This document shows, in pieces, positions 6,697 through 7,414 of a stretch of 64,000 nt of DNA. Numbering within the stretch: position 1 is the first letter of the stretch; every line of letters starts with the position of its first letter. A program made the position numbers and the translations under genes. The DNA comes from Rhina ancylostomus (Eukaryota): the NCBI GenBank assembly GCA_030265395.1, contig JARFYF010000094.1, forward strand, positions 33,350,865 to 33,414,864, given 5' to 3'. Below the pieces are notes generated by a model. The model saw only the letters and a program-made list of their open reading frames with translations, was not told the DNA's origin and did not search any database.

Positions 6697-6866
6697 TGTG
6701 CAAATTGTTCATCAAAGCTTTCATCAGGGTAGTATTTTCGAGGACGGCCTCGTTGAATATGGCGACCACGTTTAAATTCTTCATCATCAACAGTCCAAAA
6801 GGACCCAAACTCATCCTCTACTCTGATAAAGCACTTATGCAGTGACAAATTGGTGCGTATGGCACC
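6697..6866 (-). CDS. FOXP1: FOXP1 alternative, mutually exclusive forkhead exon (exon 18b / FOXP1-ES equivalent; [57 protein letters not shown])
   Basis: Acceptor ataatcccAG, donor ACA|GTAAGA. 170 nt, no stops, phase 0 to 2 like the canonical exon. Paralogous to it (NLSLHKC, RVE, WTVD) and closely similar to mammalian exon 18b as I recall it. Confidence 0.92.
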
Positions 6867-6868
6867 CT

Positions 6869-7021
6869 GGGATTATAGCAGCAGTCAAGCAGATGCGATG
6901 GAAAGACAAACAAGGGCAATGGGATTTGGGAGAGAACAAAAATCACACACAAGGGTTGGGTAAGGAAAAGGAGAAAAAAAAATGAAATAAGCAAATGATT
7001 TGTGGGGTTAATATGTGTAGC
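6869..7021 (-). promoter_or_regulatory. AG-exclusion zone with distant branch point candidate and polypyrimidine tract upstream of the 18b-like exon
   Basis: No AG on the minus strand between 7021 and 6869. TATTAAC at 7013-7007 (putative branch A 7008) is followed by a long U/C-rich tract. Confidence 0.65.
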
Positions 7022-7292
7022 CTGCAAGCAGAAGCATATGATGCAGAACACTAGGCAAGCAGATGGAAAGGACACGGGGTGGGCACCATGGCATACACAG
7101 ACTGGAAAACAAGGGGAAAGGACCCTGTGACAAAGCACTTGCTTTCCATGCCCCACATTTTCCTAAACAGCAAGAATATAACCAAGCAACACCCTTCCCT
7201 CCATCACCTGCAAGCAGCCATAAGCTGTAAGTTAAACTACAGGGGAGCTAGCTATGCTAGGAGGTTTAAGCAATTAAATATGGTGGACATAC

Positions 7293-7414
7293 CCACTGAT
7301 CTTTTGTGGCCTTCGCTTTTGGAATTCTATTTCGTCCACTGTCCACACTGCCCCTTTAACATTTTCTACTCGAACATAACACTTGTGAAGACTAAGATTA
7401 TGGCGCACTGCATT
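7293..7414 (-). CDS. FOXP1: FOXP1 canonical forkhead C-terminal exon (human exon 18 equivalent; [41 protein letters not shown])
   Basis: Acceptor ttactatAG, donor TGG|GTATGT. 122 nt, phase 0 to 2. Recognition helix motif NAVRHNLS. Confidence 0.96.

Follow-up and report, generated by a model that had tools for sequence, protein, structure and literature searches.

The closest described counterpart of the exon pair considered here is the choice between exons 18 and 18b of mammalian FOXP1 (16 and 16b in the mouse), which underlies FOXP1-ES: the gene, the tandem arrangement of the exons, their phases and the Gly and Thr recognition residues of the alternative exon are all the same. The exchange of exons moves the motif preference of the mammalian protein from GTAAACAA to CGATACAA (Gabut 2011, as related in the available passages of a review, PMC11701043, which is also the source for its stem-cell-specific inclusion), and the main repressor of exon 18b in human cells is MBNL1 (Truong et al. 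2021, PMC8189919, in the passages available). In the available parts of Santos et al. (2011, PMC3002244), the pair is described from Drosophila and mouse and dated to the base of Bilateria, the B isoform is reported from six mouse tissues or cell types, and an alternative forkhead exon is said to be without evidence in FoxP2, FoxP3 and FoxP4, where its degeneration is inferred. A catalogue of tandem exon duplications, whose method began by demanding an orthologue of the event in shark, ray or lamprey, carries FOXP1 as event 81, of class 'Internal', with Bilateria as the last common ancestor (Martinez Gomez et al. 2021, PMC8373072, in the parts available); FOXP2 is absent from the supplementary table as available, which is to be expected when the events catalogued are those still live in human. 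Finally, a FoxP gene tree of the form ((P1,P3),(P2,P4)) is favoured, with weak support, by Tsai et al. (2025, PMC11998571), whose available passages make no mention of exon b.

Against this background, the locus described here, found in a window of 64,000 nucleotides (the whole stretch of DNA that was analysed), is with high confidence read as an intact orthologue of FOXP1 18/18b, likely spliced in a mutually exclusive manner to yield two forkheads with different predicted motifs, while in FOXP2 the corresponding exon-b copy was probably inactivated before the lineages of sharks and bony vertebrates separated. The FOXP1 switch itself is already known, and the window adds one more species to a bilaterian event; it is the relic in FOXP2 that occupies most of what follows.

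The FOXP1 exon pair and its conservation

The exons around the forkhead domain match FOXP1 (a catshark isoform) at 92-100%, and a search of the same genome found separate FOXP2, FOXP4 and FOXP3-like loci. The attribution to FOXP1, and of the alternative exon to the FOXP1-ES (18b) type, which a sequence-only reading of the window had proposed, is thus correct, and so is its account of the pair as two stop-free minus-strand exons, which proved to be bounded by AG and GT sites (Table 1). The cartilaginous fish that it supposed as the source (called 'shark' below) fits as well: exon b is identical at 56 of 56 residues to that of 'forkhead box protein P1-B isoform X6' of the catshark Scyliorhinus torazame (RefSeq, XP_072328365.1), and the canonical FOXP2 exon of the same genome is 100% identical to that of Callorhinchus milii.

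Table 1. Positions of the FOXP1 exon pair and its surroundings in the window, and of the exon-b relics in FOXP2
Feature	Position	Strand	Description
Upstream constant forkhead exon	14085..14186	minus	102 nt; joins either exon of the pair
Exon 18 (exon A)	7293..7414	minus	122 nt; TAG/GT; phase 0 to 2; stop-free in frame 0
Intron between exons 18 and 18b	6867..7292	minus	426 nt; 16 YGCY (MBNL-type) motifs
Branch-point-like motif TATTAAC (function predicted)	7007..7013	minus	A at 7008, -142 from the exon-b acceptor
AG-free, pyrimidine-rich zone before exon b	6867..7021	minus	155 nt
Exon 18b (exon B, FOXP1-ES type)	6697..6866	minus	170 nt; CAG/GT; phase 0 to 2; stop-free in frame 0
Start of the intron 3' of exon b	6597..6696	minus	5 YGCY within 100 nt; partial conservation in amniote FOXP1
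Next constant FOXP1 exon	4033..4102	minus	70 nt
Shark FOXP2 exon-b relic	G000:C29:25598679-25598845 (L008:679-845)		411 nt past the canonical exon; FOXP2 by flanking exons
Amniote FOXP2 exon-b relic	L016:1522-1669		367 nt past the same exon; more decayed, with a 22-nt deletion

Exon 18 encodes the second half of the canonical forkhead domain (Pfam Forkhead, 30.7 bits), with Asn and His as recognition residues; at position 13 it has Tyr, in place of the Phe of the other vertebrate FOXP exons examined, and it is 91% identical in DNA to the canonical FOXP2 exon of the same genome, with low silent divergence (dS 0.31). Exon 18b (hereafter 'exon b') puts Gly and Thr in place of that Asn and His, changing NAVRHNLS to GAIRTNLS, and adds a basic tail, RGRPRKY, just as had been described. 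Either exon alone connects the two constant exons in frame and without a stop. The frame-breaking nature of the other two products was likewise borne out, since double inclusion leads to a stop at nucleotides 47-49 of exon b (121 nt before the end of that exon) and double skipping to one at nucleotides 55-57 of the 70-nt exon that follows.

When the 56-residue exon-b peptide was used for a protein search, 157 matches were obtained, 120 of which were listed. Exon b is recognisable in 112 of the 120 matches listed, which on sequence grounds puts the exon pair far beyond chance; Gly1 and Thr5 are present in all 112, and RGRPRK in 109 of them. The exon is spliced directly onto the upstream constant forkhead exon in 90 of the 120 matches listed, and all 90 are of FOXP1 type. 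The named sources of exon b comprise primates, a parrot, squamates, amphibians, gar, sturgeon, teleosts and the catshark S. torazame. Relative to the macaque, 52 of 56 residues agree: residues 1-45 are identical, and the four changes all fall within the last 11.

The same conclusion of purifying selection, which the sequence-only reading had anticipated, follows from substitution rates (all of which were computed on 40-56 codons). Against an amniote FOXP1 contig (L025, bird-like judging by its peptide), exon b has a dN/dS of 0.18 (dN 0.05, dS 0.28; Nei-Gojobori, one pair, 56 codons) and exon 18 one of 0.06 (Nei-Gojobori, one pair). The low synonymous distance of exon b, together with the early stop produced by double inclusion, might also be accommodated if the exon were rarely or never translated and had been conserved in order to route transcripts to decay; this is very improbable, because change is much rarer at amino-acid sites than at silent ones, and because conservation of the peptide reaches as far as arthropods.

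Among 80 metagenome FoxP loci (kept from 222), the start of an exon B lies 3' of exon A in 29, and 28 of these 29 carry RGRPR[KR]; short sequences and apparent spliced transcripts make up many of the remaining loci, which hence give no sign of absence. Outside the vertebrates, position 1 of exon B is Asn or Ser: of 85 representatives, 81 have Asn, three Ser and one Gly, the last being of vertebrate type. One invertebrate exon B (L028:882-1051), which begins with Ser, has the 170-nt length and the donor position of vertebrate exon b; these two features suggest that the internal-cassette form of exon B predates vertebrates. In another invertebrate FoxP locus (L058:2225-2362), a strongly diverged stretch resembling exon B lies 238 nt past exon A, with no AG at the expected start, and is possibly another decaying exon B. 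A teleost foxp1 copy (L019:952-1040) retains the AG-free zone, the acceptor and codons 1-30 of exon b, after which similarity is lost, so that loss of the exon is apparently under way in a duplicate foxp1.

Splicing and DNA recognition

Mutually exclusive splicing of exons 18 and 18b is likely, with indirect support from the frame logic and from the predicted catshark isoform. The AG-free zone in front of exon b, 155 nt long in the shark, measures 153 nt in the amniote (L025) and 152 nt in the teleost (L019), whereas three further acceptors in this FOXP1 gene have 31-80 nt, and the branch-point-like motif recurs in amniote FOXP1 (L025) at -137. Steric exclusion of one exon by the other requires a distance from donor to branch point much below 284 nt. 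Here some 284 nt separate the exon-18 donor from the predicted branch point, a distance too great for exclusion of that kind, and exclusivity is therefore likely to depend on regulation combined with nonsense-mediated decay.

YGCY is the binding motif of MBNL proteins. Its 16 occurrences in the intron between the two exons place that intron at the top of 135 N-free, 426-nt tiles from the minus strand of the window (mean 4.4, maximum 12); the same number is reached in seven of 300 dinucleotide-block shuffles, a modest enrichment. The count in the amniote FOXP1 intron is reached by 33 of 300 shuffles and is not significant, and the long flanking introns likewise exceed their own shuffles (5/300 and 0/300). 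Downstream of exon b, the five motifs within 100 nt are matched by nine of 300 shuffles.

On the arrangement that we propose, exon 18 would be used by default, exon b being weak; MBNL bound along the YGCY-lined, AG-free tract would repress exon b, which would be used where MBNL is low, an expectation carried over from human cells; and nonsense-mediated decay would remove the products of double inclusion and double skipping. The early stops in those products were found, and their decay would follow from them; since the exons beyond 4102-4033 fall outside the window, decay of the double-skip product is something that we infer. The conserved, distant branch-point-like motif and the YGCY tract offer targets for dating MBNL control of exon 18b. 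A helix between the exon-18 donor and sequence beside the exon-b branch point, proposed by a consensus fold of three sequences, was rejected, because its duplex energies are no better than those of shuffled sequences (69, 20 and 55 of 200 shuffles being as good for shark, amniote and teleost FOXP1, respectively).

With regard to recognition of DNA, exon b exchanges both of the base-contacting residues, N550 to G and H554 to T in the numbering of FOXP2; that numbering, and the modelling of N550G and H554T, come from the available passages of Santos et al. (2011, PMC3002244). The two forkhead forms are predicted to prefer different DNA motifs, and the b protein would shift its preference from GTAAACAA towards CGATACAA, as in mammals. 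None of seven PDB matches is a structure of the b form.

The basic tail had been called AT-hook-like, a likeness that holds only in part: Pfam AT_hook (PF02178) gives it 12.8 bits, below the gathering cut-off of 17.4, so that a resemblance stands and curated membership does not. Three invertebrate B exons give 15.9 bits, 14.7 bits and no score. A search of the literature for RGRP or AT-hook in connection with a FoxP isoform B returned, in the passages available, only apparently unrelated papers. The conservation of the tail across bilaterians suggests that it may contact DNA.

A relic of exon b in FOXP2

The search of the same genome returned a sixth match, interrupted by stops, in FOXP2 (Table 1). 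It can be aligned to FOXP1 exon b over its whole length, with 73% nucleotide and 56% amino-acid identity, and it includes the tail that is found in exon b and absent from exon a; its local score of 206 compares with a mean of 69 for shuffles, none of which (0/200) reaches it. By these alignments, and by a tree in which this relic and its amniote counterpart are both placed with vertebrate B (support 95/99), it is a dead orthologue of exon b, homologous to that exon rather than to exon a. The lesions consist of two stops, the deletion of one codon, CTT in the place of the acceptor and the loss of the donor GT, and the TATTAAC motif is absent from both the shark and the amniote relic; with AG, GT and branch-point motif gone, the relic would stand outside the FOXP2 mRNA. 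Of 24 sequencing runs listed for the FOXP2 stretch, 20, from 11 studies, contain part of it; none of those listed is an RNA run, a result that weighs neither for nor against splicing of the relic.

An amniote FOXP2 intron holds a second, orthologous relic at the same position, in a more decayed state. It is detected with E=4e-4 by a profile made solely of FOXP1 sequences, and its scores with two FOXP1 queries are reached by 0/200 and 6/200 shuffles. The two FOXP2 introns match each other directly, with 67% identity over 156 nt in blastn (E=7e-13). Alignment per 50 nt gives 54-70% for the 3' end of the relic plus roughly 150 nt downstream of it, versus 13-48% in a forced alignment of the remaining intron.

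The relics share more than their position. Fifteen informative sites in a four-taxon comparison join the two relics, and the other two groupings have one site each; only 21 sites are changed in both relics (16.6 expected if changes were independent), and the signal lies in the identical derived states, which number 15 where 5.5-8.3 would be expected. Two changes common to both are of particular kinds: Arg43 to Gln in the near-invariant RGRPRK and, probably, Trp24 to a stop, the alignment of which is less sure because the amniote stop adjoins the 22-nt deletion. With 15 derived sites in common, the relics point to a single, likely death of the exon in the FOXP2 lineage, before the split between sharks and bony vertebrates. 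In the tree, the relics are joined with support of only 82/74, and the amniote branch is very long. Subsequent change appears close to neutral, with relic-to-relic distances of 0.43 at codon positions 1 and 2 and 0.49 at position 3, as compared with 0.054 and 0.16 for live exon b; measured against shark FOXP1 exon b at positions 1 and 2, the shark relic has accumulated about 0.27 changes per site and the amniote relic about 0.67. A single inactivation of FOXP2 exon b before the shark/bony split, followed by near-neutral decay, is accordingly the account that we hold to be probable, with the early date depending on one amniote contig (L016).

It is unlikely that the exon was instead lost late, and separately, in the lineages leading to the shark and to amniotes. 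Such a history would make sense of the different damage to the splice sites (the amniote relic has lost its donor and kept its acceptor AG, whereas the shark relic has lost the acceptor as well), of the reading-frame register and 73% identity that the shark relic retains, and of changes in it that are slightly more frequent at third positions (15/46) than at first and second positions (24/104). It is opposed by the stop at Trp24 and the Gln at Arg43 that both relics possess and by the even spread of their differences over codon positions. A late loss is also opposed by the protein search, in which the 90 proteins with a spliced exon b (among the 120 of 157 matches listed) include none of FOXP2 or FOXP4 type; there is likewise none among the representatives listed, and the translated shark relic (with stops as X) found no relative among short proteins. 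These protein results are weak evidence, as protein names are sparse and the listing covers 120 of the 157 matches.

Survival of the relic through recycling as a non-coding element (an enhancer or a splicing element), beyond what slow decay alone would leave, is decidedly unlikely. The local rise in shark-amniote similarity around its 3' end, and the blastn match there, are what speak for it. Yet the distance from relic to relic (0.64-0.79) is no smaller than the synonymous distance in the adjoining live FOXP2 exon (dS 0.62), because of which neutral decay suffices; the next FOXP2 exon shows differences at nine of its 23 third positions; and the amniote copy has sustained deletions, while one teleost foxp2-like intron has no detectable relic (its score is equalled or exceeded by 39-144 of 200 shuffles). 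We are similarly doubtful of the wider proposal that FOXP2 once had a switch of FOXP1-ES type of which the remnant is still functional, either as an open, spliced exon b in some slow-evolving jawed vertebrate or as a regulatory element from sharks to amniotes. That the shark relic was copied late from FOXP1, by gene conversion or ectopically, or is an artefact of assembly, has next to no probability: a dead exon would not be expected to retain such high identity, and the canonical exons of FOXP1 and FOXP2 likewise show an unusual likeness in their DNA, but the amniote FOXP2 copy sits in the same place with 15 derived states in common, only one site groups by species, and the four-taxon pattern largely refutes it.

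Under the preferred reading of one early inactivation, FOXP2 would have inherited exon b at its duplication and lost the function of the exon, which would then have decayed in a roughly neutral manner; slow change in the shark lineage would have left the relic readable there. The relic places the loss after the duplication that separated FOXP1 from FOXP2 and, probably, before the shark/bony split. Vertebrate-type N550G is likely, by parsimony, to be older than that duplication, because the first codon of the shark relic is the Gly codon of FOXP1 exon b and the acidic tail of that exon is matched too; at the first codon the amniote relic is different. The relic shows that exon b was once present on the FOXP2 side, and does not choose between the tree of Tsai and the serial tree of Santos.

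The other FOXP loci of the genome gave no relic. What looked like exon b in the FOXP4 intron (z about 6) was rejected as an artefact of the 243 N there: when the intron was rescored with the N fixed in place, 35-84 of 200 shuffles reached its score, and a remnant is undetectable in the visible (non-N) part. The fourth FoxP locus (L012:2564-8300, G000:C122), which is compact and has exons for a zinc finger and a forkhead, appears by elimination to be FOXP3-like; there, FOXP1 queries gave no relic signal (187 and 116 of 200 shuffles reach the score), and the relic as query gave a score reached by 3/200 shuffles, at another position. Shark FOXP3 is described in reports later than the view that the gene was lost. 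Loss of FoxP3 from shark genomes is what the available passages of Tsai et al. (2025, PMC11998571) cite.

Relation to described FoxP switches

The sequence-only reading had dated the switch to at least the jawed-vertebrate ancestor. As a minimum age this is true; as a discovery it does not stand, because the FOXP1 switch was already published as bilaterian and the date is too young. The exon pair of the window and that of the bilaterian FoxP A/B genes (PMC3002244, in the passages available) agree in the order of A followed by B, the replacement of His by Thr and the RGRPRKY tail. They part at position 1 of exon B, which is Asn in the arthropod and mollusc-like form and Gly in the vertebrate one. 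From mammalian FOXP1-ES, the window differs at the four residues near the end of exon b noted above and at Tyr13 of exon 18. The catshark entry XP_072328365.1 has the same flanking exons, and differs in being a predicted model from another species, with remaining FOXP1 exons that depart slightly from those of the window. The FOXP1 event in the catalogue of tandem exon duplications (PMC8373072, in the parts available) is the same as that in the window.

No report of an exon-b remnant in FOXP2 was found in the literature covered, a scope outside which lay most subscription papers, table S1 of Santos and figure S1 of Tsai; the available text of a teleost FoxP2 paper (PMC3857310) has no passage on introns or splicing. 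Where Santos et al. (PMC3002244, in the passages available) name mouse, human and zebrafish, the present comparison has a physical FOXP2 remnant in a cartilaginous fish and an amniote. That remnant is a modest but concrete addition, as it provides physical evidence for a loss that those authors inferred from a tree, and it marks a defined intronic site in FOXP2 at which any alignment of vertebrate genomes could be inspected.
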